From the NCBI GenBank assembly GCA_963677765.1, contig OY782392.1:90001-122000 (forward strand): 32,000 nt of DNA. Reading direction: 5' to 3'. How positions within the stretch are numbered: the stretch's first letter is position 1; every line of letters starts with the position of its first letter. This DNA is from Candidatus Saccharimonadota bacterium. Its GTDB lineage: Bacteria; Patescibacteriota; Gracilibacteria; BD1-5; UBA6164. Position numbers and translations under genes: made by a program. Shown one piece after another: positions 1,104-21,082 of the stretch. The notes under the pieces are model-generated. The model ran no database searches and was not told the DNA's origin. It saw nothing but the letters and a program-made list of their open reading frames with translations.

Positions 1104-4100
1104 TTTTTTTATTCTATCAGTTTTTTTGTATAAAAACCAACTATAATATAATGATGGGACAACAAACAATGTCATTGTTGATCATGCTATCAATCAAAAT
1201 ACAATTGTAAATCATAATCAAGCCCAAAATTCATCTTGTAAAGCTAATGGTAAAACTCAAAAAACAGTTGTAAGAGTAGTAACTATTATTGGTTGTAATC
1301 TAGATTTTCAAGCAGAGATTACACTATGAATATTATCTATTCCTTTTTCTAAGTTTCTATTAATTCTATCTATTAATATAATAGCATCATTAACAACAAC
1401 TCATGTCATAGCAATAAATCAAATCATAAAAGTAATACTATATGGATTTCAAGTTAAAAATAATCAAATATTAACTCAAATAGTAGCAAGTATTACTGAA
1501 TATAATACTATTAATGGTTGTCTGAAACTATTAAATTGAAATACTAAAATAGAGAATATCAAAAACATTGATATAAACAATGACGCAATTGTAGATTGTA
1601 TTAAATCTGCATTTTCTTGATTTTCTCATCATTTTTCATAAGAAATTCATTCAGGGAAATTATAAGTAGAAGCATACTCATCAACCTTTGGTTGTATATC
1701 TGTAGATAATACTCAAGATTCTAAATCAGCTTCAACTGTAATTGTAATTTTTCAATCATCTCTAGTAATAGAAGTAATTGCCTTTGTAAATTCATAATCT
1801 GCAAAATCTCAAACTCTAAGTTTACCAGACCTAGTATTTATCATCAGATTTGATATTTCATCTGGACTTAATTCGTCTTCAAAGTCAGCAATTTTTAAAA
1901 CTATATCATTATCTTCATATTGAGACTTTATACTTCATGCTTTTAATCAATTTGTATATAAATATACTTCATTTACTATATCAGATGGAGTTAGTCATAA
2001 TTGAGATAATTTATTCTTATTAAATTTAAAAATGAACTGTCCTGGTGATTCACTACTTGTAGTAGTAATATTTTTTAGTCAATCAATAGTTCTAAATTCT
2101 TCTTTGAATATATTTGCTACATTTTTTAATTCATCTACTTTATTTGAATTATTTGCAACAAGTTTTACTCAAATAGCTTTTCAAGAAGGTGGTCAATTAG
2201 AAATAGTTTTTATAGAAACACTTAATCATTCTTCTTCTAGAGAAGATAAATTATTCATTATTTCTTCTTCTACTTCATAAACGTTTCTAAGTCATAATTC
2301 TTTTCTTTCATTTTTATTTAAAAGTTCAACATAAATATCTATTTTATTTCAAGAAACAGACATATTATAAACTTTTAATTCATCATGATAATTTATAGCA
2401 TTATCTATATCATCTAAATACTTAAGCAAACTATCTTCATTAGATCATTCCTTTGTTTCTATACTAGCTTGTATAACTGAATTATCAGTACTTGGAAATA
2501 AAATAAATCATATTTTTGGAGATAGAAAAACAAAAGTAATAACCATAAATACAATTGGAAAAACAATTACTACCCTTCTTATTGAGTTATTAATAACTAT
2601 TTTTTTCAACAAGTTATAATAAGACATAGAAAGTTTTCTAAGCGATTTATCTCTTAAAGATACTTTATCTACATTTTCAATTGTTTTTCATTGTCTTTCA
2701 TAAGATAAAAATTCTTTTTGTTTCTCTGAAAAACTAGCCTCTAATTTTTCATCAACATGATAAACTTTAGATTCACGAGCAAGCTTTATAAATAAGGCTG
2801 AACTTATAGTCAAAGAAAGAAAAAGAGCAGCAACCAAAGTAATAAAAACAGTTATTGGTATATAAGCCAAAAATTTTCACATAACACCAGGTAAAAACAT
2901 CAAAGGTAGAAATACAACCAGAGTTGTTAATGTTCATGAAATAAGAGGTGTTTTAAAATCTCTTATAGCTAATAAAACTGCCGTTTTTTTAGAATATCAC
3001 ATTTTCATTTTTTCACTAGCTCACTCTATAATTACTATAACTGTATCAATAGCAATTCAAAGAGTTAAAACAAGTGAAAAGTTAGTAAGAAAATTAAGAG
3101 TATATCACATATAGTTCAATACTATAAATGTAACAAAAAATGACAATGGGATAAGTATTGAAGCTATTATTGATTCTTTTAATCAAACAAATAATAATAT
3201 TGTAATAAAAACAAGAACTAATGTTTGTATAGCTGTAGTAGATAAATTTTTATAATCTTCTATAATAACTTCTGAAAGATCATTTATATAAAAAATATCT
3301 ATTCATTCTAAGTTATTATCACTTTCTAAAAACTTTTCTAACTCTTCCTTACTTATGTCTGAAACATCAAAAACATTTAGTCATTCATTTTTATTAAATA
3401 ATAATGAAGTGTAGTTTAATCCTGTTTTTCATTTAAATCATAATTTATTTATAGAATCATCTCAGTAGTCTTTTTCTATTGTAGATATATCTCTAAGTAA
3501 AACAGTAGAGTTTCAAGAGCTTTTTATTACAATATCTTTTAATTCTTCTATATTAGAAAGTTCTCAATCAAATCTAAAATCATAATTTAAATCTCATATA
3601 GTAAAATTACCAATAGGGGTATTTTTATTATAACTTCTTATTATATTTGATATATCAGCTATAGATAGAGATAATGTTTCTAATTTATCTTTATCTAATA
3701 AAACATTTATTTTATAATCATTAGCTCAAGAAATACCTCACATTCAACTCATATCAATAGATCATATATCTATTGATGATAATCATGGTATTTTTCATTC
3801 TAAACTACTTTTTATATATTGAGCTTTCTGTATAAGATCAAAATCTGAAAACTTAGAAGAATCTCAATATAGCAATACTTCAAACATCAAATCACTATTT
3901 GTAGACAATTCTGTAACAAGAGGATCTTCTGCATCTTCTGGTAAATCTACTTTATCTACTCAATCTTTTATATCAGTTAATACATCTCTTGTATTAGCTG
4001 TATTTTCAAGCTCAATTGTAATATTTGAAACTCAAACAGAAGAAACTGAATTAATACTTTTAATTCAATCTATGTCATCTATTTCTTTTTCAATCTTTTC

Positions 4101-4331: not shown

Positions 4332-6183
4332 CTATTTTATTTTTAATTTTTAAATTAAATTTTTCTTCATCAAAATTATCTACATAATTTGTAATAATCA
4401 TTGTATTTTCATCTATCTCATCAAGAATTTCAACTTTTTCTCAATAAATATCTCAAACTTTTAAATCACTGGTATTAATTGATCAACTAGAATAGTAATT
4501 GATTGTTCAAATTCAAGAATTATTTATTTTTATAGAATCAAGAGATATTAATTTATTATCAAGTTGAATAGGAACCTCTATTTCAATAATATTTCAAATA
4601 TAATTAGCTTGATTAGGTAATTTTACCTTTGCAACATATTTAAGATTTTCATCAGCATTTTGAGCTATAGAATAAATACTTCAAGTATAAGTAGTATTAT
4701 CATTTTTGTAATAAACATCTTTTCATTCATAAACATATGATAATTCATCTTTTGTAAAAGAAATATTTATTTCATTATTTGTCTCACTAAGTATTTTAAA
4801 AGATGGAGTTCAAACTCATAATTCTTGTCATTCATCAATCATTATATCAGATATAATTCATGATATTGGTGAAGTTATATTTAACTTATCAGCTTGCTTA
4901 ATTGCTTGAGAGTATGCTATATTTGCATCTTCAACTCTTATTTCAGCATCTTTTATTGAAGTTTGAGAATCTTTTAATCATATTTCTAAATTTCTCAAAG
5001 TTAAATCTCTACTTTTTTTAGCTTCATCTAAAGTAGCCTCCATATTCTCTATTTCTAAATCTAAAGATCTAACATAAATTCATTTATCTTTTTCTAAATT
5101 TTCTATATTTTTTAGTAATGACTGCTCAGTATTTTGATAAGTTTCTAAGAAACTAGATATATTATTTTCCAATCAAATTAATTGAGTTTTATATCAATTA
5201 TAACTAGCTCTAAAACCAGAAACTTTTGCTTTGAATCAATCTATTTCTGCTTTTGATAAAGATCATGCACTTTCTATAGAATTAGATAATGTTTGATCAA
5301 ATTCTCTTAAAAATTCTATTATCAAATCATAAGAAATATTCAATTCATCTAAATATTTTTGATAATCCGTAGAATCGTTAAACTCAACTTCAAGATCATC
5401 AATATAATCTTTTTTTGATATCAAATTTCTTAATAGATTTTCTGTTTTTATTTTTTGTCAAGAATCTTTTGCTCATAAAAATGTTTCAAAAGAATCATTT
5501 TTATTTTTATTTCATGATGTAACTCAAAGTATTTCATCTGAAAAATAAGTTATATCATATAAGAAATCTCTTAAAACAATAAATTCTTTTTCTATATTTT
5601 TTTCAAAAGTAGTTAATGTTTCGTTATTAGATAATAAAAGATTATTATATTCTATTTCTAATTTTGCTAATGAATTTTCAATTTTTTCTAATTCCAAAGA
5701 AGAACTAGAATCTAGATTTTCTACATTTAAGTTTTTAAGGTTTCTTTCTAAATCAGATATTGATTTATCCAAATTTAACTTTGTTGTTTCAAAATTTATT
5801 TCTAATTTTTCATAGTTATTTTTTGCTACTTCTAATGAATTTTCAGCAGAAGCTAGAGCATTTTTTGATGATGCTACATTTAAATAATAATTAGCTATAT
5901 TATCGTCAAGTGTTGCTAATAATTGTCATTTAACAACATTATCTCATTGTTTAACAAAAATATTATTAACTCTTCAGTTAGCATTTGAATTAAGTGAAAT
6001 ATCTTGACTAGAAGATATTATTCATGTTTTTTTCAAAATAGCTTCATTAGATAATTCATTATATCATATAGTTTCAATAAGAAAATCTTTTTTTTCTTGT
6101 TTTTCTTCTACCAACTCATCAGTTCAACATGAATTAAGTAAAAGCATTCAAAATATAGTAAGTAAAATTATTTTTTTATTCAT
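4324..6183 (-). CDS. efflux periplasmic adaptor / membrane-fusion protein (HlyD-like) lipoprotein with very long coiled coil, 619 aa
   Basis: ATG at 6181-6183 (minus) to TAG at 4324-4326, overlapping the RND start by 8 nt (ATGAATAG). The N-terminus MNKKIILLTIFGMLLLNSCGTDE is a signal peptide with a lipobox-like Cys. The lipoyl-like motif is NGRVNNIFVKQGDNVVKGQLLATLDD. Several hundred residues of heptad-like sequence follow. Track ORF 5524-5772 is an in-frame fragment. Confidence 0.85.
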
Positions 6184-6583: not shown

Positions 6584-8308
6584 ATGAGCTGAAATACAAA
6601 GCATACTATTAGAGAAAAAACTCAAGAAAAAATCAAAATAATAGATGAGTTATTAATAGCATGACTTGAATGAATAAAAAAACTATGATCTGAATTCACA
6701 AAAGATAATTTTCATAAAATAAAAAATAAAATTTATTGAAAATATAAGCTTGCAAAACCTATAGCTAGTATAGAGTTAATAGAAAGATATAACGAATTAA
6801 TAGCTACATGAGAATTAGAGGAAGACTTATTATTTAAAAAGATTCTTAGAAAAAGATGAGTTAGAAGTCAATCATGAGTTACAGTTATTTCTCTTCTTAC
6901 AAAATTTTGGTGATGTCCTGGTGAATGTGTATATTGTCCTACTTTTGAATGACTACCAAAATCATATATACCAAATGAACCTGCAGTAATGAGGGCTGAA
7001 TTAAATAAATTTGATCCTATAAAGCAAATACATAATAGATTAAGAGCTTTAGAAGTTACTGGACATAAGATAGAAAAGAATGATGTTAGAATAATTTGAT
7101 GAACTTGGTCTGTATATCCTAAAAAATATCAAGAAGATTTTATTAAATGAATATATGATGCTTTTAATACTTATGATGAAATGAAAGAATTCATAGAAAG
7201 CACTGATTTGTCAACTGATAAATTTGCTAATTTCAAAATAAGAGAAACTTACAAAGCAAAAATAGCTCCAACTTTGGAAGAAGCAAAAAAAAGAAATGAA
7301 AATTCTAGATGTAGAGTAATTTGAGTAGCTATAGAAACAAGGCCTGATTGGATAACTCCAGACGAAATAAAAAGACTTAGATCATACTGAGTTACTAGAG
7401 TTGAGATTTGATATCAAACTACTTTTGATGAAATAAATGAATTAAATAAAAGATGACATTGAAATAAAGAAAGTATAGAAGCAACTAAAATGCTGAAAGA
7501 TGCTTGATTCAAAGTAGTTGCTCATATGATGCCAAATTTATTAGGTTCTACACCTGAAATGGATAAAAAAGCCTTAGCAAGAGTTTTTGATGATCAATCA
7601 TTTAGACCAGATGAATTAAAAATTTACCCTATGGTTGTTACTGATAAATCAGAATTAACAGATATATGGAAAAAATGATGATTCAAAGCCTATGATGATG
7701 AAACATTGATAAACCTTACTGCAGAGTTAGAAGCAATGGTTCCAGAGTATATAAGACTTAACAGAACATATAGAGACATACCAGCAAGTGAAATATTAGA
7801 AGGATCAAAATTAGCTAATCTAAGACAAATAGTCGAAGATAAGCTAAAAAATGAATGAATAAAAATGGTAGATATAAGACATAGAGAAATTAAATTTTGA
7901 AAAAATGATCCTAAAAAAGCTGTATTAAATGATTATAGTTATGAGGCATCTGATTGATATGAACATTTTTTAACTTTTGAAGATCCTGAAGATAGAACTA
8001 TTTTCTCTCTTCTTAGATTAAGACTTGCAAAATGAAATGAAGAAATAAACAAAGCACTACCTGAACTAGAATGAGCTGCATTGATTAGAGAAATACATAC
8101 ATTTGGTGATCAACTAAGTATTTGAGAAAAATGATCAACTTTTTGACAACATCTATGATTTTGAAAAAGATTAATAGCAAAATCTGAAGAACTAGCTATT
8201 GAAGCATGATTCAAAAAAATGGCTGTAATTGCATGAGTTTGAGTTAGAGCATATTATGAAAAAAGATGATATCATTTAGAATGAGAATATATGGTAAAAG
8301 ATTTATAA
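6584..8308 (+). CDS. elp3: Elp3-like radical SAM / GNAT acetyltransferase (tRNA wobble uridine modification enzyme homologue), 574 aa
   Basis: Read with TGA=Gly:
- Radical SAM Cys cluster: RKRGVRSQSGVTVISLLTKFWGCPGECVYCPTFEGLPKSYIPNEPAVMRAE
- RIIGGTWSVYP, CRVIGVAIETRPDWI, LRSYGVTRVEIGYQTTFDEINELNKRGHG, AGFKVVAHMMPNLLGSTPEMD, PEYIRLNRTYRDIPA
- C-terminal GNAT part: REIHTFG...GQHLGFGKRLIAKSEELAIEAGFKKMAVIAGVGVRAYYEKRGY
Stop TAA at 8306-8308. Confidence 0.9.
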
Positions 8309-8327: not shown

Positions 8328-8765
8328 ATGAAAAAAGTAGTTAGAACTTTCCTAAAAAATAATGAATGAAAATTTCTTTTTGTAAAACATAAATGAAAAG
8401 ATTATTGGTCTTTACCAGGCTGACATATAGAGTGAAATGAAGATATATACAAAGCTATAAAAAGAGAAATAAAAGAAGAATTAAATCTAAAAATAAAAAT
8501 TCTTTGAAACAAAATATGATTAGATATTGAAAATATAAAAGAACTAGCAACTCCTGTAGCAGTTTACAAAATAGAATTTGAAAATAATAAATGAAAAAAA
8601 CTAAAAAAGCTTGAATATATATTTCTTAGTGAGATAAAATCTTGAGATATAAAAATACAAGAAGAAGAAATTGATGAATACAAATTTTTTAGTGCTGATG
8701 AAGTATTAGAACTAGAAAATACTTTTTTACAAGTAAAAGAAATATTAAAAAAGATAGCTATATAA
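8328..8765 (+). CDS. NUDIX hydrolase (145 aa)
   Basis: The Nudix box GGHIEGNEDIYKAIKREIKEELNL matches GX5EX7REUXEEXGU, and three of its Gly are TGA. ATG at 8328, TAA at 8763-8765. Confidence 0.88.
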
Positions 8766-10473: not shown

Positions 10474-11739
10474 ATGTTGTTCAATAAAAACAAAATAGAA
10501 TTATCAAAAGAAGAAATAATAAATGCAAAAGATTCGTTTTGAGATTTTATTAATGATACTCCTCTAGAAAAATCACAAAGATTGAGTAAAAAATATCAAG
10601 CAAATATATATTTAAAAAGAGAAGATTTACAAGAAGTAAGAAGCTATAAAATAAGATGAGCTTACAATCTAATAAATTCACTAACTCAAAAAGAAAAAGA
10701 TTCAGGTGTTGTTTGTGCTAGTGCATGAAATCATGCTCAATGAGTTGCTATATCATGCTCAAAACTAAAAATAAAAGGTACTATCTTCATGCCAATTACA
10801 ACTCCTGAACAAAAAGTATATAAAACAAAACAATTTTGATGAAAATATGTAGATGTAGTATTAGTATGAGATACTTTTGATCAAGCATTTAAAGCAAGTA
10901 AAGAATTCGAAAAAGAGAAAAAGGCAACTTTTGTTCATCCTTTTGATGATAGAAGAATTATATGTTGACAAGCAACAATATGACTTGAAATTTTTAACCA
11001 ATTACAAGGCATAGAAGCTGATTATATAATAAGTCCTATTTGATGATGATGAGTAATATCTTGATTAATAAATGCTAAAAATGCATTTAATAAAAAAACA
11101 AAAATAATATGAGTTGAGCCTGAATGAGCTCCATCAATGAAGAAATCATTAGAAAAATGAAAAAATACAACATTAGATAAACTAAATATATTTGTAGATG
11201 GTGCCTCAGTTGCTAGAGTTTGAGAGAATACTTTTAATATTGCAAAAAATGAAAAATTAAGAGTAATGACTTCACCAGAAGACAGAGTATGTTCTACTAT
11301 TCTTGAATATTTAAAAGAAGATTGATTAGTTGTGGAACCTGCTTGAGCTTTATCTACAGATATACTAAAAGACTTGAAAGAAGAAATAAAATGAAAAAAT
11401 ATTATCTTAATAATATCTTGATCTAACTTTGACTTTGAAAGACTACAAGAAGTAAAAGAAAGATCTATGAAATACGAATGATTAAAAAGATATTTCTTAG
11501 TTAGTTTCCCTCAAAGACCATGAGCACTAAAAGAATTTCTTAATTGTTTATGACCAAATGATGATATAGCAAGATTTGAATACCTTAAAAAATCAAATAA
11601 AAATAAAGCACCTGTTTTTATTTGAATAGAGACAGATAAAAAATCTAACTGGTCAAAAATAATAAAAAATATGACGGATTTATGATTTAAACATAGAGAT
11701 GTAACTGATGATGATTTATATTTTGATTTATTAGTTTAA
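10474..11739 (+). CDS. ilvA: threonine ammonia-lyase (threonine dehydratase), short form with one ACT-like regulatory domain, 421 aa
   Basis: YLKREDLQEVRSYKIRGAYN contains the PLP lysine motif. Also present are VVCASAGNHAQGVAISC and ISPIGGGGVISG (a tetra-Gly loop encoded as four TGA). The C-terminal part is RYFLVSFPQRPGALKEFL. TAA at 11737-11739. Confidence 0.9.
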
Positions 11740-11781
11740 TTGTGATAAAATTGATTATAATATTATATTAATAATAAAAAT

Positions 11782-12213
11782 ATGGTTTTAATATTTACAA
11801 ATAAAGACAAAGCCTCTCCCAAAATGGATAACGATGAGTTAAACTCATTGTTTACAGCATCAAAAGCACCATTAGCTATTTGACCTTACAGTAAAGCATA
11901 TAGTGCTTGAGATTTACTATTCTGCTCATGACAAATATGATTAGATGTAAATACTATGCAAATGGTTAAATGATGAATTGAAGAACAAACAAAACAAGTT
12001 TGTAGAAACATAAGTCATTTATTAGAAGAATATTGAACAAGTTTAAAAAATGTAGTAAAAACAACTATTTTTTTAAAAAATATTAATGATTTTGAAGCTG
12101 TTAATAATATATACAAAAATTATTTTGTATTAAAACCAGCAAGATCAACTGTAGAAGTATCAAATCTACCAAAAAATGCACTTATAGAAATAGAAGTAAT
12201 AGCAAAGATATAA
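11782..12213 (+). CDS. ridA: RidA/YjgF-family enamine/imine deaminase
   Basis: [29 protein letters not shown]...[24 protein letters not shown]...[23 protein letters not shown]. The longest ORF starts at 11782 (143 aa). An internal ATG at 11824 would give a more typical 129-aa protein. Confidence 0.88.
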
Positions 12214-12288
12214 ATTGATTAATAGATAAATCAATACTATAATTTATTATATATTGATTTATTTTTTTTATGACTAATAAACAAAGAT

Positions 12289-12882
12289 ATGAAAAAATAT
12301 ATAATATTTGATTTAGACTGAACTCTTATATATAGCGATATTCAAATAAATAAAATAATATTAGAATATATAGAAAATAATTTATGAAAAGATTATTTAG
12401 ATGCAACAAGATATTTTTTAAATAATATGAAATGAGGAACACTTAAATATCTTTTTGAATATTTATGAATAAATAATGAAGAAAATAAAAAACATTCCGA
12501 TATTTTATTTGAAGAATTAAAAAAAATAAAAAACATAGAATTCATAGAAGGAACTATTGAAAAAATAAAAGAATTAAAAAAAGATTGATTCATACTTTTT
12601 TTATCTACATGAAATAGTACAGACTTTGCAAAAAGGGTATTAAAAGATGCAAATATTGATATTTTATTTGAAAAAATAATGTGAAGTGATATTATAGCAA
12701 AGTCAAATGAACATGTAGAAATATTCAAAGAAATAGTTTGTGATGATAATTTTTATAAAAATTGTGTTTCAATATGAGATTGACAAAAAGAAGAACAAAT
12801 AGCAAAGGAGAATGATATAGATTTTGTGCATATATGAGATAAATATAAATCAATATCACAAATTAACTTTAAAAAAATATAA
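12289..12882 (+). CDS. HAD-superfamily hydrolase (197 aa)
   Basis: MKKYIIFDLDGTLIYSD carries motif I DxDGT with Gly=TGA. Also present are LFLSTGNS (motif II-like) and SIGDGQKEEQIAKENDIDFVHIG (motif IV-like). TAA at 12880-12882. Confidence 0.8.
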
Positions 12883-12925: not shown

Positions 12926-14311
12926 ATGAAAAATAGATATAGATTAGATTGTAAAGAAAACATAAACAAAGAAGTAACTGATTTCTTAAGATTAGAAGAA
13001 AATGAAGAATTTATAGAATTATTATTTTTAGAATATAGTAGAGATATAAATTGAACACTTACAAATAAATTAGATTTATTTAATCTAAAATGACTAAGTG
13101 ATATAGAAATAGAAGAATTATTAAATGATTTTCTAAAAAATAAAACAAGAGAAATTCAATGTTGAAACTGAATATCTTATAACAAAGTAACAGTAGATGA
13201 TGAAGAATGAATTGATTATCTTAATTATATTTTTAAAAAAGCGCTTCATTTTTATGAAATTGAATTAAAATGACAATTACCTAGAAAATATAAAAATATA
13301 ACAGATTTTTTCAAAACAAAAGATGATGTTATTAATTTTTTAAAAAATACTACAAAAAATATTCAATCTTCTCAATTTAATTGTGTATTAACAAAAATAT
13401 CATATGCAGTTAATGAAATAATTGATACTCCTGAACTTCTAGAGCTAGATAAAAAAAGTTACTATCTTTTAAAAGAAAAAATATTACCTGCAGTACAACT
13501 AGATGAACCAAATTCAAATATAGATTTTTGATTTTTAAATTGAAAAATTTCTTTTTCATGAAAAATTATAGAATTTAAAATGAGAATGAGATGAAAAAAT
13601 GAAGAATCATGAACTTTTAAAATATTAAAAGATGAAAATTATTTAACAGCAAATAGTATAAAAGATTTAATATGAATTGAATTTGAAGTAAAAAATAAAG
13701 AAGATGCTTTGTTATTACTATCATATTTTTATCAAACTTTTTTCCATAAAACAAATGGTGATGGAGAAATTATAAATACAATTAAAGAATTCAAAGACAA
13801 ATGAATTATAAGTCAATCTATTGTAAAAAGATTAGAAAGAAAATGACTTATAAGCTGAGAATTTCTAGAGTTGATTAAAAAATCTAGTTCAAAATCAAAA
13901 ACAATGCAAAATATGCAATATAGTGATATAAAATTTGTTTGAGATATTGATTTACCGTTAAATTTGAATGATAAAAGATCCCAAAAAAAACCTCATTGAG
14001 TTGAATTAAGAGCAATTTTAGTTTGAAATACTAACGAAGAATGATTATCTGACCATAGAATATTACATGTATGAAAAATAGTTTTAACATGGGTTAGATT
14101 AAAATGATATATTACAGAAGCATTTATAAAACACCTAATAAATGATTTACTTGAAAACAATCCTGATTTAGATGAAAAGTTTTCAAATGATGAAATACTT
14201 GAATACTTTAAAGCTAAACTTATAAAAATAGAAAGAAATTGAAAAATAGATATTTATACTACAAAAAGTATGAACTCTACTATAGAAAATCAAAAACAAT
14301 TTGCAAACTAA
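12926..14311 (+). CDS. hypothetical protein, possible divergent RelA/SpoT-like (alarmone-synthetase fold) nucleotidyltransferase core, 461 aa
   Basis: The frame is open with TGA=Gly from ATG at 12926 to TAA at 14309-14311. Two central segments resemble the synthetase-domain pattern R-x-K...S...K / DL-x-G-I-R and E-I-Q-I-R-T...E-x-G...H-x-x-Y-K:
- FKMRMRGKNEESGTFKILKDENYLTANSIKDLIGIEFEVKNKEDALLLLSYFYQTF
- KKPHGVELRAILVGNTNEEGLSDHRILHVGK
The match is by eye only, so the functional call is tentative. Confidence 0.6.
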
Positions 14312-15510: not shown

Positions 15511-15550
15511 CTTTACAAATAACAAAAAATTATTAAAGTCTTAGTATATA

Positions 15551-15758
15551 AAAGCGATTGAATGGCTATCAACCATGAGCTGGAGGAAGAAAGGATTAAC
15601 TCTTAGTAGAACCTCTCGAAGTCGAAGTACTTCGTTAAAAAACAAAATAGAGAATAACTTTAGGTGGTAACTCCCCTGTTTAATAAAATCAAGGGGCCGA
15701 AAGTATAAAAAATATATTTCAATATTAAAATGAAATTTATATTTTTTATACTTTTTTT
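15551..15758 (+). promoter_or_regulatory. T-box riboswitch leader, Ile specifier (AUC), terminator/antiterminator type
   Basis: This is the only noncoding stretch clearly richer in G and C than its surroundings.
- T-box sequence: ACUUU-AGGUGGUAA-CUCCCCU (15657-15677)
- Antiterminator: ACUUU (15657-61) pairs with AAAGU (15700-04), and CCCCU (15673-77) pairs with AGGGG (15692-96), leaving a bulge that carries UGGU
- Competing terminator: AAAGUAUAAAAAAUAUA (15700-16) pairs with UAUAUUUUUUAUACUUU (15738-54), followed by a U-run
- F-box-like UCGUUAA (15632-38)
- S-turn-like AGUAGAA bulge (15605-11) in a helix formed by GGAGG-AAGA and UCUU...CCUCU
- Hairpin AUGG-CUAUCAA-CCAU (15562-76), exposing AUC followed by A. 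Confidence 0.8.
15700..15758 (+). terminator. intrinsic terminator of the T-box expression platform
   Basis: A 17-bp perfect stem (15700-15716 with 15738-15754) encloses a nested atttca/tgaaat hairpin. A T-run follows to 15758. Its 5' arm overlaps the 3' arm of the antiterminator. Confidence 0.8.
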
Positions 15759-15777
15759 ATTTATAAATAAAAAGCTT

Positions 15778-15993
15778 ATGAAAACAAAAGATATTATAAA
15801 AAATATGAAAATTTATTTAGAAGAAGATAATTTTGAATCAATAGATGAATTATTACAAGAAATATTTTCTTCAGAATTACAAAAAGAACAAGAAGAAGCT
15901 ATATGAGATTTATTACAAGAAGTTACTCTATATAGTGAACTTAGAGAAGATGAGTATAAAAATGAGGCTCTAAATATAATAAATAATCTATAA
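15778..15993 (+). CDS. hypothetical small acidic helical protein (71 aa)
   Basis: The ATG is 20 nt after the T-box terminator: MKTKDIIKNMKIYLEEDNFESIDELLQEIFSSELQKEQEEAIGDLLQEV...LNIINNL. TAA at 15991-15993. Confidence 0.65.
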
Positions 15994-16000
15994 AAAATGA
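15973..16000 (+). repeat. direct repeat copy 1 at a gene junction (aatataataaataatctataaaaaa + ATGA)
   Basis: About 25 nt are identical to 16339-16363. The repeat covers the last codons (NIINNL), the stop and the next start codon. Confidence 0.85.
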
Positions 16001-16359
16001 AAAAACAATTAGATCAAGTATTAGAATTTCATAAAAAGTTTAAAGCATTAATTAATAATGAACCTAGTAATATAAGTGAGGATAGGTATTATCTTAGATA
16101 TAAATTAATGAAAGAAGAGATTGAAGAATACTTAATTTGAGCAAAAAATTGAGATAAAGAAAATATTGCAAAAGAATTATCAGATATTTTATACTCTGTA
16201 TATTGAACAATAATAGAACATTGATTACAAGAAAAAATAGAAGAATGTTTTAACGAAGTTCATAAAAGTAATATGAGTAAAGATTATTCTTCAACTAAAA
16301 TGATAAAATGAAAAAATTATTTTAAAGCTGATTTAAGCAATATAATAAATAATCTATAA
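15997..16359 (+). CDS. MazG-like all-alpha nucleoside triphosphate pyrophosphohydrolase (120 aa)
   Basis: The EXXE...EXXD metal-binding signature is present in LMKEEIEEYLIGAKNGDKENIAKELSDILYSVYGTIIEHG. It is followed by FNEVHKSNMSK, which is typical of the small MazG/YpjD-like family. The gap to the upstream gene is 3 nt. Confidence 0.75.
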
Positions 16360-16367
16360 AAAAATGA
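16339..16367 (+). repeat. direct repeat copy 2 at the next gene junction
   Basis: Same sequence as 15973-16000 with one extra A in the A-run. It again spans NIINNL, the stop and the next ATG. Confidence 0.85.
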
Positions 16368-16933
16368 TTACAGAAATAGAAAAAAAATATGCTTTCAATA
16401 AAGATGATTATCAAAAAATAGTTGATAATTGTAATTTTGAATGAGAAATAAATATAAAAGATTATTATTTAGATAATAGTGATTATGTACTATTTAAAAA
16501 TAAATATTATTTAAGACTTAGAGATGGTATTTATGAACTCAAAATAGCCAAAGTAGATAAAGAAAATTGATTAGTTACATCAAAAGAAATAATTTGAGAT
16601 GAAGAAATTGATCAAATCTTACAAGAAAACTTTTGAATAAGTATTGATGAAACTATTTGAGTAGTATTTGTTGAAACAAATAGAGAAAAATACTCTTATG
16701 AAATAGATTGAATTAAACTAAATATAGACATAGATAGCTTTCAATATTGAAAAAGATATGAAATAGAAGTAATATCTAACTCAAAAAAAGAGGAAGAAAT
16801 TAATGACATAATAGAAAAATTTAGAGATAAACTATGACTTTTTAGTAGTTATGATGAAAGCTCTTGAAAAATAATGGTATGTGCAAGAAACCAAAATATT
16901 GAAATATATGAAATAATGAACAATCAAATTTAA
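16364..16933 (+). CDS. CYTH-domain protein (triphosphate tunnel metalloenzyme; CyaB/ThTPase-like), 189 aa
   Basis: The N-terminal ExExK signature is in MITEIEKKYAF. It is followed by YYLRLRDGIYELKIAK, REKYSYEIDGIKLNIDIDSFQYGKRYEIEVI. TAA at 16931-16933. Confidence 0.78.
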
Positions 16934-16950
16934 TTTATAAAAAAGAAAAT

Positions 16951-17214
16951 ATGGAATGATATATACAAAGTCTTTTAGATAATCCAAGCAAAGAAAATTT
17001 AAATAGAGTAGATTATGAAATAAAAAGAACGAAAGATATAATAGATAGTTATTTTGAATCTATAAATTATATTTTAGCCTTATGATGAGAAGAGTCAGAA
17101 CATAAAGAAGAAATAGAAAGAATACAGAAAATAATAGATAATGAAAAAGAATTTTTAGAACATTGTAGAAAAGTATCAAAAGATATAGAAGAAGTTTTAA
17201 AAGAAAAAAATTAA
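16951..17214 (+). CDS. hypothetical small helical protein (87 aa)
   Basis: MEGYIQSLLDNPSKENLNRVDYEIKRTKDIIDSYFESINYILALGGEESEHKEEIERIQKIIDNEKEFLEHCRKVSKDIEEVLKEKN. It starts 17 nt after the CYTH gene. Confidence 0.6.
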
Positions 17215-17273
17215 AGTCCGTAATGACTTATTAAACTATAAATAAATATTTAATAATTAATTATACAAACAAA

Positions 17274-20200
17274 ATGTGTGATTGTAATAATAAAAAATAT
17301 CCTGAAGTAAATCCAAAACAATCATTTCCTCACTTAGAAGAAGAAATATTAAAATTTTGGAAAGAAAATTCTATATTTGAAAAATCTATAGAAAATAGAG
17401 AATGAAATGAAGAATTCAATTTTTATGATGGTCCTCCATTTGCTACTTGAACACCTCACTACTGACATATATTAGCTGGTACTATAAAAGATGTAATACC
17501 TAGATACCAAACAATGGCTGGTAAAAAAGTAGAAAGAAAATTCGGTTGGGATACTCACTGATTACCAATTGAAAATATAGTAGAAAAAAAATTAGAAATC
17601 TCATGAAAAGATGATATAGAAAATAGAGTATGAGTTTATGAATTCAATGAAGAATGTAGAAGAAATGTTTTTTGATATGTTGAAGAATGGAAAAAAACAG
17701 TTGATAGAATGGGTAGATGGGTTGATATGGAAAACTCATACAAAACTATGGATAGTGATTTTATGGAATCTGTATGGTGGGTTTATAAATCATTATATGA
17801 TAAAGGTTTGGTTTATGAAGGTCATAGAGTAGTACCATATTGTCCTAGATGTGCAACTCCTTTATCAAACTTTGAAGTAAATCAATGATATAAAGACAAA
17901 CAAGATAAAACAGTTACAGTAAAATTCAAAGTAAAAGGAAGTGAAAGTAAATATATACTTGCTTGGACAACTACTCCTTGGACATTAGTAGCTAATCTTG
18001 GTCTAGCAGTATGAGTAGACTTAGATTATGTAGAACTACTTGATTCAAAAACTAAAGAAACATATGTATTAGCTAAGGATAGAATATCTTCATACTATAA
18101 AAATGAAGAAGATTATAAAATAATTAGAGAATATAAAGGTGCTTGTTTAGTTTGAATTAAATACGAAGCAATTTTTGATGATTTTTGGATTTTAAATGAA
18201 GCTAATGATATGCCATTATGAATGGAATTATGAGAAAATGCATATTCTGTTATAAAAGGTCATCATGTAACAACAGAATCAGGTACAGGTATTGTACATA
18301 TAGCACCTGCTTACTGAGAAGATGATAATCTAATAGGTAAAGAAGAAAAACTTGGTTATGTTGCTCATATTGCCGATAATGGTAATACTGAAAATTTATT
18401 AAATGATAATGGTATTCAAGTATTTGAATACAACGAATTAGCAATTCAAAAATTAAAAGAAAAAAATGCTACAGTATTAATAAATACTTATGATCACTCA
18501 TACCCTCATTGTTGGAGATGTGATACTCCTCTTATATATAGAGCGATTTCAGCTTGGTATGTAGCAGTAGAAAAAATAAGAGATAGAATGGTAGAAAGTA
18601 ACCAAAATATAAATTGGGTACCTGAAGAAATAAAAAATGGTAGAATGTGAAAATGGTTAGAATGAGCAAAAGATTGGAATATTTCTAGAAATAGATATTG
18701 GGGTTCAGCTATACCAGTATGGCAATCTGAAGACAAATCAGAAGAAGTATGTGTATGAAGTATAAAAGAATTATATGAATTAAATAAAGACTTCTGACAA
18801 ATCGAAGAAAAAGATGGTAAATACTATTATACTGAAACAGGTAATGAAGTAGATTTACATAAACACTTTGTAGATGATATAAAAGTAAAAAATCCAAAAA
18901 CTTGAAATACTCTAACAAGAATACCTGAAGTATTAGACTGTTGGTTTGAAAGTGGAGCAATGCCTTATGCAAGTAAACACTTCCCTTTTGAATGACAAGA
19001 AGATTTCAAATTTCCAGCTGACTTTATTGCTGAATGATTAGATCAAACTAGATGATGGTTTTATACTCTTATAATTTTATGAGTAGCATTATACGATGTA
19101 GCTCCAATGAAAAATGTAATTGTAAATGGTATAGTATTAGCTGAAGATGGACATAAAATGTCAAAATCAAAGAAAAACTACCCAGATCCACAATTAATTT
19201 TTGATAAATATTGAGCTGATGCAATGAGATTTTATTTAATGAACTCTCCAGTAGTAGAAGCTCAAGACTTAAGATTTATGGAGTCATGAGTAGAAGAAGT
19301 AGTTAAAAAAGTAATACTACCTTTATGGAATACTTATTATTTCTTCACTACATATGCTAACATTGATGAATTTAAATCAAAATGATTACCAGAAAAATTA
19401 GATAACAATCTAGATAAATGGCTGATTTCTGAATTAAATGAATTATCATATGAAGTTGGTAAATGATTTGAAGAATACAAATTAAACAATGCAGCAAAAC
19501 CAATAGTAAAATTTATGGATAATCTTACTAACTGGTATATTAGAAGATCTAGAAAAAGATTTTGGAAAACTGAAAATGATGGTGATAAAATTCAAGCATA
19601 TGAAACTCTTTACTATACATTAGTAGAAGTTACAAAAATTATAGCTCCATTTATGCCATTTGTAAGTGATTATATATATAAAAACTTAACTAATGATGTA
19701 TCTGTTCATTTAACAGATTTCCCTAAATATGATTCTAATTTGATTGATGAAAAATTAAATAATGAAACTGATTTAGCTCAAAAAGTAATTACTCTATGAT
19801 TAGCTTTCAGAGCAAATGCTAAAATAAGAGTAAGACAACCTCTTACATCAATTACAATTACTTCAGAACTTGATGAATATTATAAAGATATTATAAAAGA
19901 AGAATTAAATGTAAAAAATGTATTAGTTGTAGATGGTAGCACACTTGCTCAAAAAATATGTAAACCAAATGGTAGAGCTATAGGTCCAAAATTTGGTAAA
20001 GATGTAAAGTTTATAATGAGTGAAGCTAAGGCTTGAAACTTTGAAGAATTAGAAAATGGAAATATTAAGGTTTGAGAATTTAAATTAGAACAATGAGATT
20101 TTGAACTAGTATATCAAGCATGAGATTCTTCATTAGAAATTGAATCATGATTTGGTATGGTTATATCAATGGATACTAATATAACAGAAGAATTAAAAAA

Positions 20201-20438
20201 CGAATGATATGTTAGAGATATTGTTAGACATATACAAGAATCAAGAAAAGAAGCTGATTATAAAGTAGATGATAGAATTGAAGTATGTATTTCATGAGCT
20301 GATTCTATTTTAGAAAACTTTAAATCATATATAGAATGAGAAACTCTTTCTACTATTGTAGAAAATTTAGATAAATCTGATATTGATAAAGATTTACAAA
20401 TAGAAGATTTAAATATAAATCTAAAATTAAAAAAATAA
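17274..20438 (+). CDS. ileS: isoleucine--tRNA ligase (type 2 / eukaryote-like architecture), 1054 aa
   Basis: [20 protein letters not shown] contains the HIGH motif, with its Gly at TGA 17463-65. Also present are [60 protein letters not shown] and [14 protein letters not shown] (KMSKS). Track ORF 19515-19799 is an in-frame fragment. TAA at 20436-20438. Confidence 0.95.
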
Positions 20439-20441
20439 TAA

Positions 20442-20468
20442 AAAGCTAGATAATTTTTATCTAGCTTT
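20442..20468 (+). terminator. hairpin terminator after ileS
   Basis: aaagctagata (20442-52) pairs with tatctagcttt (20458-68). The downstream T-tract is short. Confidence 0.6.
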
Positions 20469-20492: not shown

Positions 20493-21068
20493 ATGAAAAT
20501 CGATATTAGTAATGAATTAAAAAAATTAGAAAAACTAAAAAAATCTAGAGAAAAAAAAGATATTGATTTAATAATAAGTGATTTTGATGATACTATTTTT
20601 TGTAGAAATGAACAATTAGAAAAATCAGAATTATTAAGAACAAATAGATGAAATGCTTGAAATGATATTATATTATCAACAATAGGTCTAGAAAACTATA
20701 TAAATGAGTTTTATAAATGAAAGAAATTTCCTGATGATATAATATCAAAAATGAATAAAGATTATGATTTAATACTTACTGCTTGATATAAGGTTTTACA
20801 AGATGCAAAACTTAAAGCAACTAATTTAATTAATAATTTAAATTATATAGTAGTAGAAAAAGCCGAAGATAAAATACTAGAAACTATTAGATATATAATA
20901 GAAGATTTATGATTTATTCCTAGTAAAATAACAATCTATGAAGATAGACCTCAATATTTTATTGAAAACAAAGAAACAATAGAAAATTTTCTAGATACAA
21001 AATTAGAAGTAATTTTTGTAGAAATGATAGATAATCATAATTCTCCAAAAACAAAAAAAGTAGCTTAA
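20493..21068 (+). CDS. HAD-like hydrolase family protein, function unknown (191 aa)
   Basis: LIISDFDDTIFCRN carries motif I DxDxT. I recognised nothing in the rest of the protein. TAA at 21066-21068. Confidence 0.6.
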
Positions 21069-21082
21069 AAGCTACTTTTTTT
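21054..21082. terminator. bidirectional terminator shared by convergent genes
   Basis: aaaaaagtagctt pairs with aagctactttttt. The stop codons of both flanking genes (21066-68 on plus, 21081-83 on minus) lie in or at the hairpin. Confidence 0.7.

Follow-up and report, generated by a model that had tools for sequence, protein, structure and literature searches.

What does an isoleucine-specific T-box regulate when four genes unrelated to isoleucine separate it from ileS, the gene encoding isoleucyl-tRNA synthetase? This question is raised by a 32,000-nucleotide stretch of a Candidatus Saccharimonadota genome (contig OY782392.1, positions 90,001 to 122,000 of the forward strand; hereafter the window), which is assigned to the Gracilibacteria and thus to the candidate phyla radiation (CPR). 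A first-pass annotation of this DNA had described an Ile T-box followed by five co-oriented genes with gaps of 3, 4, 17, and 59 nt between them (g1 to g4 and ileS, all on the plus strand). It had interpreted these genes as a single transcript whose readthrough depends on uncharged tRNA-Ile, and had suspected a starvation-to-nucleotide-signaling module behind this arrangement. The coordinates could be reproduced under genetic code 25. We compared the window with 80 other ileS loci, among which L020 is the closest relative. Taken together, we consider it likely that a tRNA-Ile-responsive attenuator gates a polycistronic g1-g2-g3-g4-ileS unit, in which ileS would be the target and the genes in between passengers. 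In our judgment, the switch itself and the fluid cargo slot behind it are the most interesting content of this locus, while the pairing of a MazG-like with a CYTH protein matters less.

The leader is predicted to consist of the following parts:

15546-15765, plus strand: complete Ile T-box leader
15546-15679, plus strand: T-box aptamer and T-box sequence, the predicted tRNA-Ile-sensing part (covariance model R1, 124.3 bits, E=5.4e-27)
15552-15583, plus strand: Stem I, with a K-turn-like base (AAGCGAUUGA ... GAGCU) and a 4-bp hairpin (15562-15576)
15568-15570, plus strand: specifier AUC, followed by A, within the terminal loop CUAUCAA (15566-15572)
15582-15616, plus strand: Stem II, with purine-rich GGAAGAA / AGUAGAAC (S-turn-like) and a variable apical hairpin
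15617-15640, plus strand: Stem IIA hairpin, followed by an F-box-like CGUUA; four of its five pairs covary
15657-15704, plus strand: antiterminator, composed of A1 (ACUUUAGG / CCGAAAGU), the 7-nt bulge UGGUAAC (15665-15671), and the A2 helix (15672-15696)
15700-15765, plus strand: intrinsic terminator, a 22-bp AT-rich hairpin (15700-15754, -15 kcal/mol) followed by UUUUUUUAUUUAU

Model R1 was trained on 31 relatives, with the window and L020 left out. Its match at 15546-15679 is the only significant one in the window. Elsewhere, 47 matches were obtained in Gracilibacteria-type loci and none in the Spirochaete and Treponema ileS loci at E<=0.01. Nearly all Gracilibacteria-type loci have the core GCUUUAGGUGGUACC upstream of ileS. 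With the leader structure as specified on the relatives, 93.7% of the cells were paired, compared to 80.7% after shuffling and 34-48% with slid partners. Double compensatory changes were found at 17 of the 21 leader pairs, and none of 500 shuffles reached the observed values. Independently, RNAalifold recovered Stem II, Stem IIA, A2, and the terminator, with compensation at 24 of 34 pairs; the first helix it proposed (GCUAUC with GGUGGU) consists of invariant columns with zero covariation and was discarded as spurious. The Rfam T-box model RF00230 matched neither the window nor the most GC-rich homolog (L025), be it at the gathering score or at E<=10. We attribute this to a false negative of RF00230, caused by the absence of a long Stem I and by the low G+C content, and regard the leader as a genuine T-box of predicted Ile specificity. 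Rfam-based surveys will undercount T-boxes, since the form found here escapes RF00230.

In all leaders, Stem I is a hairpin of 4-7 bp with a loop of 5-7 nt, lacking a long Stem I, an AG bulge, and a distal loop. The search for this hairpin was anchored on its conserved flanks; taking the longest hairpin around any ATC instead gave AT-rich artifacts and was dropped. It passed the automated test in 43 of 45 leaders, with 19 distinct complementary arm pairs. The loop reads CUAUCAA in 31 leaders, and AUC is found in every leader scored (43 automatically and two by eye). The flanks of the Stem I base, AAGC-NNN-UGA ... (G/A)AGCU, are conserved, and the 3-bp closing helix is paired in 100% of cases with little variation; these flanks would be compatible with a K-turn. 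In Stem II, double compensatory changes were observed at all five basal and four apical pairs, and the purine-rich strands are near-invariant. Stem IIA is without counterpart in L011-L014 and L051, where Stem II runs straight to the AAAUNAAG linker; in the Nocardia ileS T-box, deletion of Stem IIA/B is reported to lower tRNA binding approximately 1200-fold (review PMC7583486). AGG and the following bulge UGGUAAC occupy positions 15662-15671. GGUGGUA is invariant across 40 aligned leaders, in which the bulge reads UGGUA(C/A)C and the 3' strand CCGAAAG(C/U). The A2 helix covaries among the relatives according to RNAalifold. Leaders compared by eye close A1 with A-U, G-C, or G.U, and an A.C mismatch was seen in none of them.

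The CCGAAAGU strand (15697-15704) has two alternative partners, either ACUUUAGG in A1 or the 22-bp terminator, the 5' arm of which overlaps the A1 3' strand. Untruncated related leaders form full hairpins starting from GAAAG, with -9 to -24 kcal/mol, which are followed by T-runs, and the terminator covaries (RNAalifold). Sequestration of a Shine-Dalgarno sequence does not describe this layout: the alternative helix is followed by a U-run, the start codon lies at least 20 nt further, and related leaders are built in the same way. We therefore assign the predicted expression platform to the classical transcription-attenuation type of T-boxes.

The following mechanism was derived from sequence and covariation. 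Transcription would start just upstream of 15550. The AUC in the short Stem I hairpin would then be offered to the GAU anticodon of tRNA-Ile, assisted by the purine-rich motif of Stem II. The NCCA end of an uncharged tRNA would pair with UGGU of the bulge and stabilize the antiterminator (15657-15704), so that RNA polymerase would proceed into g1 and onward to ileS. With a charged tRNA, CCGAAAGU would be taken up by the 22-bp terminator (15700-15754 plus U-run) and transcription would end. The ultrashort Stem I has so far been tied to the translational ileS T-boxes of Actinobacteria (PMC7583486), and the class II search of TBDB covered Actinobacteria genomes only, plus class I matches with truncated Stem I (PMC7778990). 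In the library searched, we found no T-box report for Gracilibacteria, and the phrase 'T-box riboswitch' was not found in the top-ranked CPR literature. A leader of a CPR phylum that combines an ultrashort Stem I with a transcription terminator thus appears to be new, and would extend T-box riboswitches to such a phylum.

Is ileS the gene for which this switch is maintained? In 45 Gracilibacteria-type loci, the T-box precedes ileS on the same strand, whatever genes intervene. The distance between both ranges from 76 nt (L025) and 91 nt (L011) up to 7.3 kb (L076), with 0-12 small genes in between. This is the rule in this phylum, so that the premise of the first-pass annotation, a T-box lying directly before its target, does not apply here. 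In the cases of direct adjacency, the gene next to the T-box is ileS itself (L011, L025) or ilvA (L046). About 170 of the 182 intervening open reading frame (ORF) calls are on the same strand as ileS, and at least some of the minus-strand calls are spurious, being translations across tRNA-Ser genes. The 182 ORFs fall into 71 protein clusters, 42 of them singletons. Besides homologs of the window's genes, these passengers include IlvA, RidA, a PemK toxin, DUF559, GNAT, small membrane proteins, a HAD hydrolase, and tRNA-Ser(GGA). Because none of g1 to g4 relates to isoleucine, retention of an Ile switch is sensible only if readthrough reaches ileS. With AUC as specifier in every leader, we conclude that ileS is the predicted target under selection. 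The genes between switch and ileS would then be passengers in an evolutionarily fluid slot, in which g1 appears old and widespread. Their expression would follow tRNA-Ile charging as a side effect, perhaps a useful one, and not as part of a purpose-built signaling module. Of the gene order that the first-pass annotation had named as a check, the succession of T-box and ileS recurs in 45 loci, but g2 occurs in no other locus and a CYTH gene lies inside the unit only in the clade of the window. It is unusual for an operon to hold a variable cargo of 0-12 genes between its riboswitch and the essential target, and this arrangement shows how accessory genes of a streamlined genome may borrow regulation.

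Some arrangements in the relatives deserve mention. L046 carries two Ile (AUC) T-boxes, one at 2940-3072 directly before ilvA (threonine dehydratase) and one at 5547-5684 before the cargo-ileS array. L052, L053, and L076 have one T-box each, located in front of ilvA-ridA and with predicted readthrough toward ileS. In the window, genes for IlvA (with an ACT-like C-terminal domain), RidA, and a HAD hydrolase are located on the plus strand at 10474-12882, 3-5 kb upstream of the T-box. Other genomes carry these genes within the T-box unit. A tRNA-Ser(GGA) gene is found on the plus strand between T-box and ileS in L034 (7851-7938), L045 (5187-5277), L046 (6563-6653), L052 (7123-7213), and L053 (5916-6006), and is thus nominally inside a tRNA-Ile-gated unit in five loci. 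L010 carries one upstream of ileS (850-937), and no T-box was found in this locus. The window itself contains no tRNA gene.

Downstream of the leader, the unit comprises these features:

15778-15993, plus strand: g1, 71-aa acidic four-helix protein, the commonest passenger
15973-15997, plus strand: direct repeat copy 1 (AATATAATAAATAATCTATAAAAAA), at the 3' end of g1
15997-16359, plus strand: g2, 120-aa all-alpha nucleoside triphosphate (NTP) pyrophosphohydrolase (PRA-PH/MazG superfamily, DR2231-like; PF01503)
16339-16363, plus strand: direct repeat copy 2, at the 3' end of g2
16364-16933, plus strand: g3, 189-aa CYTH / triphosphate-tunnel metalloenzyme (TTM) domain protein (PF01928)
16951-17214, plus strand: g4, 87-aa clade-specific protein, helical according to the first-pass annotation
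17216-17238, plus strand: hairpin-AAACUA element (GUC-C-GUAA-U-GAC ... AAACUA), 21-23 nt, in the gap between g4 and ileS
17274-20438, plus strand: ileS, isoleucyl-tRNA synthetase, 1054 aa, the predicted conserved regulatory target
20442-20468, plus strand: 12-bp hairpin (-12.1 kcal/mol) followed by UUUGUAUU, the probable operon terminator

We scanned for terminators with an energy-based, AT-tolerant procedure, since a G+C-dependent version missed the AT-rich terminator of the T-box. Between 15400 and 21200, strong hairpins with a T-run were found only at the T-box terminator, at 20442-20468, and at 21057-21078 (-9.1 kcal/mol), past the next gene. None was detected between 15765 and 20442, in agreement with the earlier statement that no such hairpin occurs until after ileS. 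The five genes share one orientation, follow one another at short distances, and have no terminator-like hairpins among them, so that a single polycistronic transcript gated by the T-box is the simplest reading.

These gene calls depend on the genetic code. The G+C content of the window is 22.8%, and ORFs of at least 100 aa number six with translation table 11 and 32 with table 25. In an alignment with standard-code IleS proteins, the 35 in-frame UGA codons of ileS fall into a Gly column in 21 cases and into a Trp column in none. UGA is therefore demonstrated, and not merely assumed, to encode Gly (code 25). The IleS protein of the window is at most 88% identical to those of Candidatus Gracilibacteria metagenome-assembled genomes (tblastn) and 91% identical to that of L020 (blastp). 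The database proteins corresponding to the window's own g1, g2, and a 461-aa protein encoded upstream (P0001, P0013, and P0133) carry Trp at UGA, as in code-4-style calling. The IleS alignment favors Gly and supports the view that these deposited sequences contain systematic W-for-G errors. Users of public protein sets should be aware that UGA is read as Trp in these genes, while the data presented here favor Gly.

The ileS gene itself varies in length. In many Gracilibacteria loci (L033-L041, L057, L059, L065, L068) it is 0.5-0.7 kb longer than in the window, with matches of 3.7-3.9 kb, and the code-25 ORF spans 5.1-5.5 kb in L072, L076, and L050. The additional length could stem from an inserted domain, an intein, or fusion to another gene; for L050, a Fibrobacterota locus, the long ORF may instead be an artifact of reading UGA as sense.

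A g1 gene lies between T-box and ileS in 27 loci, the window among them, and is frequently the sole gene there; L007-L009 and L075 carry homologs at other places upstream of ileS. The homologs share the motif DDILQEATLYxELxxxEYKxxAL. The AlphaFold2 (AF2) model of g1 shows four helices with a predicted local distance difference test (pLDDT) score of 92.6; our AF2 models were built on the database protein copies with Trp at UGA. Nothing significant was obtained for g1 in Pfam, NCBIfam, PADLOC, a PDB profile search, or a Foldseek search with this confident model, and weak matches to RsbU-N and TPR-like proteins were rejected. For g2, the first-pass annotation of a MazG-type protein with an EXXE...EXXD motif was confirmed and refined by profile searches: PF01503 is matched with E=8.6e-18 (65 bits, cutoff 21.3), while the MazG family PF03819 gives 18 bits and stays under its cutoff of 22. 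The metal-binding motif is present as EEIE at position 40 and ELSD at position 60, and the nearest solved relative is Deinococcus DR2231 (E=2e-5), named MazG-like NTP pyrophosphohydrolase in the PDB. More than 1000 homologs exist in Patescibacteria and DPANN, the best non-self match being 74% identical; no homolog was found in any of the 80 other loci.

The origin of g2 can be read from its borders. The 25-nt direct repeat brackets a 366-bp insertion (the offset between the copies, g2 included) that is missing from L020 in a pairwise alignment, and due to this shared repeat both g1 and g2 end with NIINNL*. By this context, g2 is evidently a very recent repeat-flanked insertion. As its family is a large one of Patescibacteria and DPANN, with the best relative only 74% identical, we conclude that g2 was acquired horizontally. 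A second repeat-flanked case was observed in L008, where a membrane-protein cargo gene is bordered by a 22-nt direct repeat near 6846 and 7411; there, as in the window, the repeat duplicates the 3' end of the preceding gene. The sequences suggest a recurrent insertion mechanism in the T-box-to-ileS interval. A HAD insertion at the junction between g1 and the CYTH gene in L024 was not counted, because only 13 nt are shared, which is too weak in AT-rich DNA. Insertions of 40-80 nt with GC-rich palindromes (e.g., CTCTCTCTTTACAAGAGAAAGAG) were seen in the apical loop of Stem II in L005, L008, L009, L038, and L033, with comparable GC-rich hairpins also in intergenic gaps of these loci; they may be small mobile palindromic elements.

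The CYTH assignment of g3 was likewise upheld: PF01928 is matched with E=9e-11 (42.4 bits, cutoff 23.2), and the ExExK motif is present as EIEKK at residues 4-8. PDB matches are weak, to TTM3-like proteins and thiamine triphosphatase with E~3e-3. In the window and eight related loci, all of the window's clade, a CYTH gene belongs to the T-box unit; it lies outside in L007-9, L012, L014, and L033, the last of these with two copies. Homologs of g4 are confined to this clade (a cluster of eight loci including the window) and no family was found in the Pfam, NCBIfam, and PADLOC searches. None of g1 to g4 gave a PADLOC defense match.

Does ileS receive transcripts only through this chain of genes? 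The 59-nt gap in front of it contains the hairpin-AAACUA element and is much better conserved than g4 between the window and L020. The element was defined as TTTGTCCG-NRA-NGAC-NNN-AAACTA. A relaxed pattern yielded 28 matches in the window and the 80 loci, 27 of them on the plus strand upstream of ileS; the T-box-to-ileS intervals account for 3.6% of the scanned sequence. Copies lie 50-64 nt ahead of the next start codon, either of ileS or of a cargo gene. Every version has the GTC/GAC stem, and 11 of 14 distinct versions have a loop of the GNRA type. When other complementary 3-bp stems were allowed as well, the search gave AT-rich noise only, so the stem is sequence-specific. Copies are located at L003:6692, L007 (five copies), L010:823/1625, L045, L046:6537, L053, L065:5404, and L076:7845, and in the Gracilibacteria loci the element seems restricted to the stretch between T-box and ileS. 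The element is also found 5-7 nt before tRNA 5' ends, including those of tRNA-Ser(GGA) in several loci (6-7 nt).

Metagenome loci (L081-L200) were collected for this element, which is present in at least 120 contigs with 23-72% G+C. Among the matches listed, it stands ahead of GP20-type phage scaffold genes, in the spacer that separates dnaK from a co-oriented neighbor, and within tRNA arrays; some copies form tandem arrays that repeat every 27 nt. The upstream ORF is co-oriented in 62 and divergent in 12 of the 74 intergenic cases among these matches, which is compatible with a promoter or a processing site. In the phage-like contigs L129 and L170, the element forms the 5' part of matches to Rfam GP20-b (RF03003), a candidate cis-regulatory RNA motif found before phage GP20 genes (PMC10690425). 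In L110, it lies about 1 kb from one end of a match to eukaryote-type small-subunit rRNA. A resemblance to T7/SP6-like promoters (TGACACTA) was not general, and a sigma-70 -35/-10 layout could not be fitted. Judged from its sequence and position, the element could be an internal promoter or a processing or 5'-end (stabilizer) signal. It probably creates a separate 5' end of the ileS mRNA, either by processing of the T-box-dependent transcript or by a second, T-box-independent start.

Upstream of the T-box, the first-pass annotation had pointed to a possible RelA/SpoT-like protein and a Nudix hydrolase. The latter is indeed encoded at 8328-8765. The former corresponds to this feature:

12926-14311: 461-aa protein, conserved in Gracilibacteria, 12 homologs

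The RelA/SpoT assignment did not gain support from the database searches: no Pfam match was found at E<=10 (including PF04607 and HD) and no PDB sequence match was obtained. The AF2 model reaches a pLDDT of 60, and Foldseek gave weak, non-significant matches to Rel (E=0.12), SAS1 (0.27), and Pol-beta-type nucleotidyltransferases. Invariant residues are D-x-I-x-x-E-x-E and H-x-V-E-x-R / D-H-R. The protein may be a divergent nucleotidyltransferase.

Which other explanations could account for this locus? If the leader were not a T-box at all, GGUGGUA and AUC would be chance occurrences in AT-rich DNA and the genes part of a long co-directional array. The silence of RF00230 would agree with this, as would the fact that most genes between 6.5 and 21 kb of the window are on the plus strand anyway. 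But this explanation is effectively refuted by a highly significant match to a model built without the window, by the recurrence of such matches in Gracilibacteria-type loci, and by extensive compensatory covariation. A more serious alternative, though in our estimation quite an improbable one, is that the T-box gates g1 to g4 only, or is largely vestigial for ileS, which would be expressed mainly from its own promoter in the 59-nt gap. The conservation of this gap relative to the g4 coding sequence, the recurrence of the element before ileS, cargo, and tRNA-Ser genes, and its positions in front of phage scaffold genes and dnaK and, in 12 of 74 cases, behind a divergent ORF are all in line with such a promoter. 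The GNRA loop pattern of the element, however, hints at a role at the RNA level, its tandem arrays would be odd for a promoter, and by our own reading it fits no sigma-70 layout. Furthermore, AUC and the T-box-ileS linkage have been kept in 45 loci although g1 to g4 are unrelated to isoleucine, which is difficult to understand without readthrough to ileS. The first-pass annotation had named a promoter in this gap together with upstream termination as the arrangement that would contradict a single transcript; a conserved possible 5'-end element is present, but no terminator precedes it in the window, and the element alone therefore leaves the link between T-box and ileS intact. The preferred reading, a tRNA-Ile-gated polycistronic unit, is nevertheless opposed by several points. 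According to the review literature, transcriptional T-boxes generally need a long Stem I with an elbow-binding platform for fast tRNA capture (PMC7583486); an ultrashort Stem I in combination with an intrinsic terminator would be at odds with this generalization and makes the present leaders a natural test case. Cotranscription of g1 to ileS and its dependence on tRNA are deduced from sequence features. The sigma-70 consensus scan was uninformative at 23% G+C (65 sites found, 66 expected by shuffling), and other internal promoters are possible. The element, with its position near tRNA 5' ends and a divergent ORF upstream in some of the listed metagenome cases, could serve as a promoter for T-box-independent transcription of ileS, and it is mainly because of this element that we regard a purely single-transcript model as likely but not as certain. 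The first-pass proposal of one T-box-gated transcript thus stands as far as co-orientation, gap sizes, and the lack of internal terminators are concerned, and is weakened by a possible internal promoter and the conserved element before ileS.

The remaining alternative concerns the passengers, which may be non-neutral, as a six-fold enrichment of nucleotide hydrolases could indicate. Such enzymes make up 33 of 166 genes inside the interval and 22 of 571 outside (odds ratio 6.2, p=4e-10; the counts are not phylogenetically independent) and are found inside it in 22 of the 45 loci. The families occupying the slot differ between lineages in a way that resembles convergent recruitment: according to Pfam, CYTH, MazG (PF03819), PRA-PH, two Nudix clusters, and NTPase_I-T (ITP/XTPase) are represented. 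This is what would be expected of the starvation-to-nucleotide-signaling module proposed in the first-pass annotation, in which selection would hold hydrolases of the g2 and g3 type under control of tRNA-Ile charging to remodel nucleotide or alarmone pools, with participation of the RelA/SpoT-like neighbor; the weak fold matches of the 461-aa protein to the catalytic domains of Rel and small alarmone synthetases point in the same direction. We nevertheless consider a dedicated module unlikely. Those fold matches have E values of 0.12 or higher, on a poor model (pLDDT 60) and without sequence support. g2 is a single-lineage insertion, and the sequences of g2 and g3 point to no particular substrate. 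Many passengers have no link to nucleotides, such as the small membrane proteins, the PemK toxin, DUF559, GNAT, RidA, and tRNA-Ser. Moreover, CYTH and ITP/XTPase genes lie inside or outside the T-box unit, depending on the genome. The hydrolases outside, including CYTH, ITP/XTPase, Nudix, and HAD genes, are almost all co-oriented and located just upstream of the T-box in many other genomes; NTPase_I-T is outside the unit in L003, L004, L006, L012-15, L017, L030, and L068. The surroundings of ileS form a conserved syntenic block in which the position of the T-box differs, and the hydrolases thus appear to be linked to the ileS neighborhood and not strictly to T-box control. A MazG-like and a CYTH protein under T-box control should therefore not be taken as an alarmone pathway.

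The tRNA-Ile-gated unit with its passengers can be extended to a broader proposal, which we put forward tentatively and consider doubtful as a whole. According to this proposal, Gracilibacteria would hold an undescribed class of transcriptional T-boxes without elbow platform. The slot upstream of ileS would be a standing expression slot for promoterless genes, into which genes, preferentially for enzymes that sanitize nucleotide pools, would have been inserted repeatedly with 22-25-nt duplications. The hairpin-AAACUA element (GP20-b) would mark junctions or 5' ends. If this were true, a regulator-poor symbiont would tie house-cleaning and other accessory functions to tRNA-Ile charging.

How does this system compare to known ones? 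With the DR2231/MazG-like pyrophosphohydrolases and HisE, g2 shares PF01503 and the EXXE...EXXD motif, but it differs as a single-domain protein of 120 aa that falls below the HisE equivalog cutoffs. The CYTH/TTM proteins (CyaB cyclase, ThTPase, PPPase) have PF01928 and ExExK in common with g3, which resembles the solved members only weakly and shows no sign of cyclase, triphosphatase, or thiamine-triphosphatase specificity. The element of the window corresponds to the 5' hairpin-AAACUA part of GP20-b, without its second hairpin, under every Rfam threshold, and in a cellular operon. As a purely functional analogy, integron arrays and phage 'morons' likewise place small, mostly promoterless, co-oriented variable genes behind one regulated promoter, and two insertions with short direct repeats were found here. 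Unlike in integrons, no integrase is present in the window or in the annotations of the loci examined, there are no terminator-bounded units, and the fixed distal gene encodes an essential synthetase. Moreover, the 3-59-nt gaps between the window's four genes are too small for attC-like sites, none of which was found there, and the junctions in the window and L008 carry 22-25-nt direct repeats instead of attC-type imperfect palindromes.

The closest parallels are T-boxes themselves. With the transcriptional T-boxes of Firmicutes (RF00230; B. subtilis tyrS and glyQS), the Gracilibacteria leaders share mutually exclusive antiterminator and terminator structures that compete for one strand, a 7-nt bulge (UGGNACC-like), a K-turn-like base of Stem I, a purine next to the specifier on its 3' side, and an aminoacyl-tRNA synthetase gene as the predicted target. 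They differ in lacking the long Stem I, the AG bulge, and the distal-loop platform, in presenting the specifier in a terminal and not an internal loop, and in escaping detection by Rfam. The class II translational ileS T-boxes of Actinobacteria (Mycobacterium, Nocardia; PDB 6UFG/6UFM; Sherwood et al. 2015, cited in PMC7583486) also have a very short Stem I that offers AUC in its terminal loop, and lack the distal elbow platform; the purine-rich S-turn-like motif of Stem II, Stem IIA with an F-box-like sequence, the UGGN bulge, and the position upstream of ileS are common to both as well. In contrast to these, the leaders described here end in a hairpin and U-run terminator that overlaps the antiterminator, where the actinobacterial ones have a Shine-Dalgarno sequestrator; most lack Stem III, and Stem IIA/B is missing from five loci. 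They occur in a CPR host with 23% G+C and are followed by up to 12 genes before ileS is reached.

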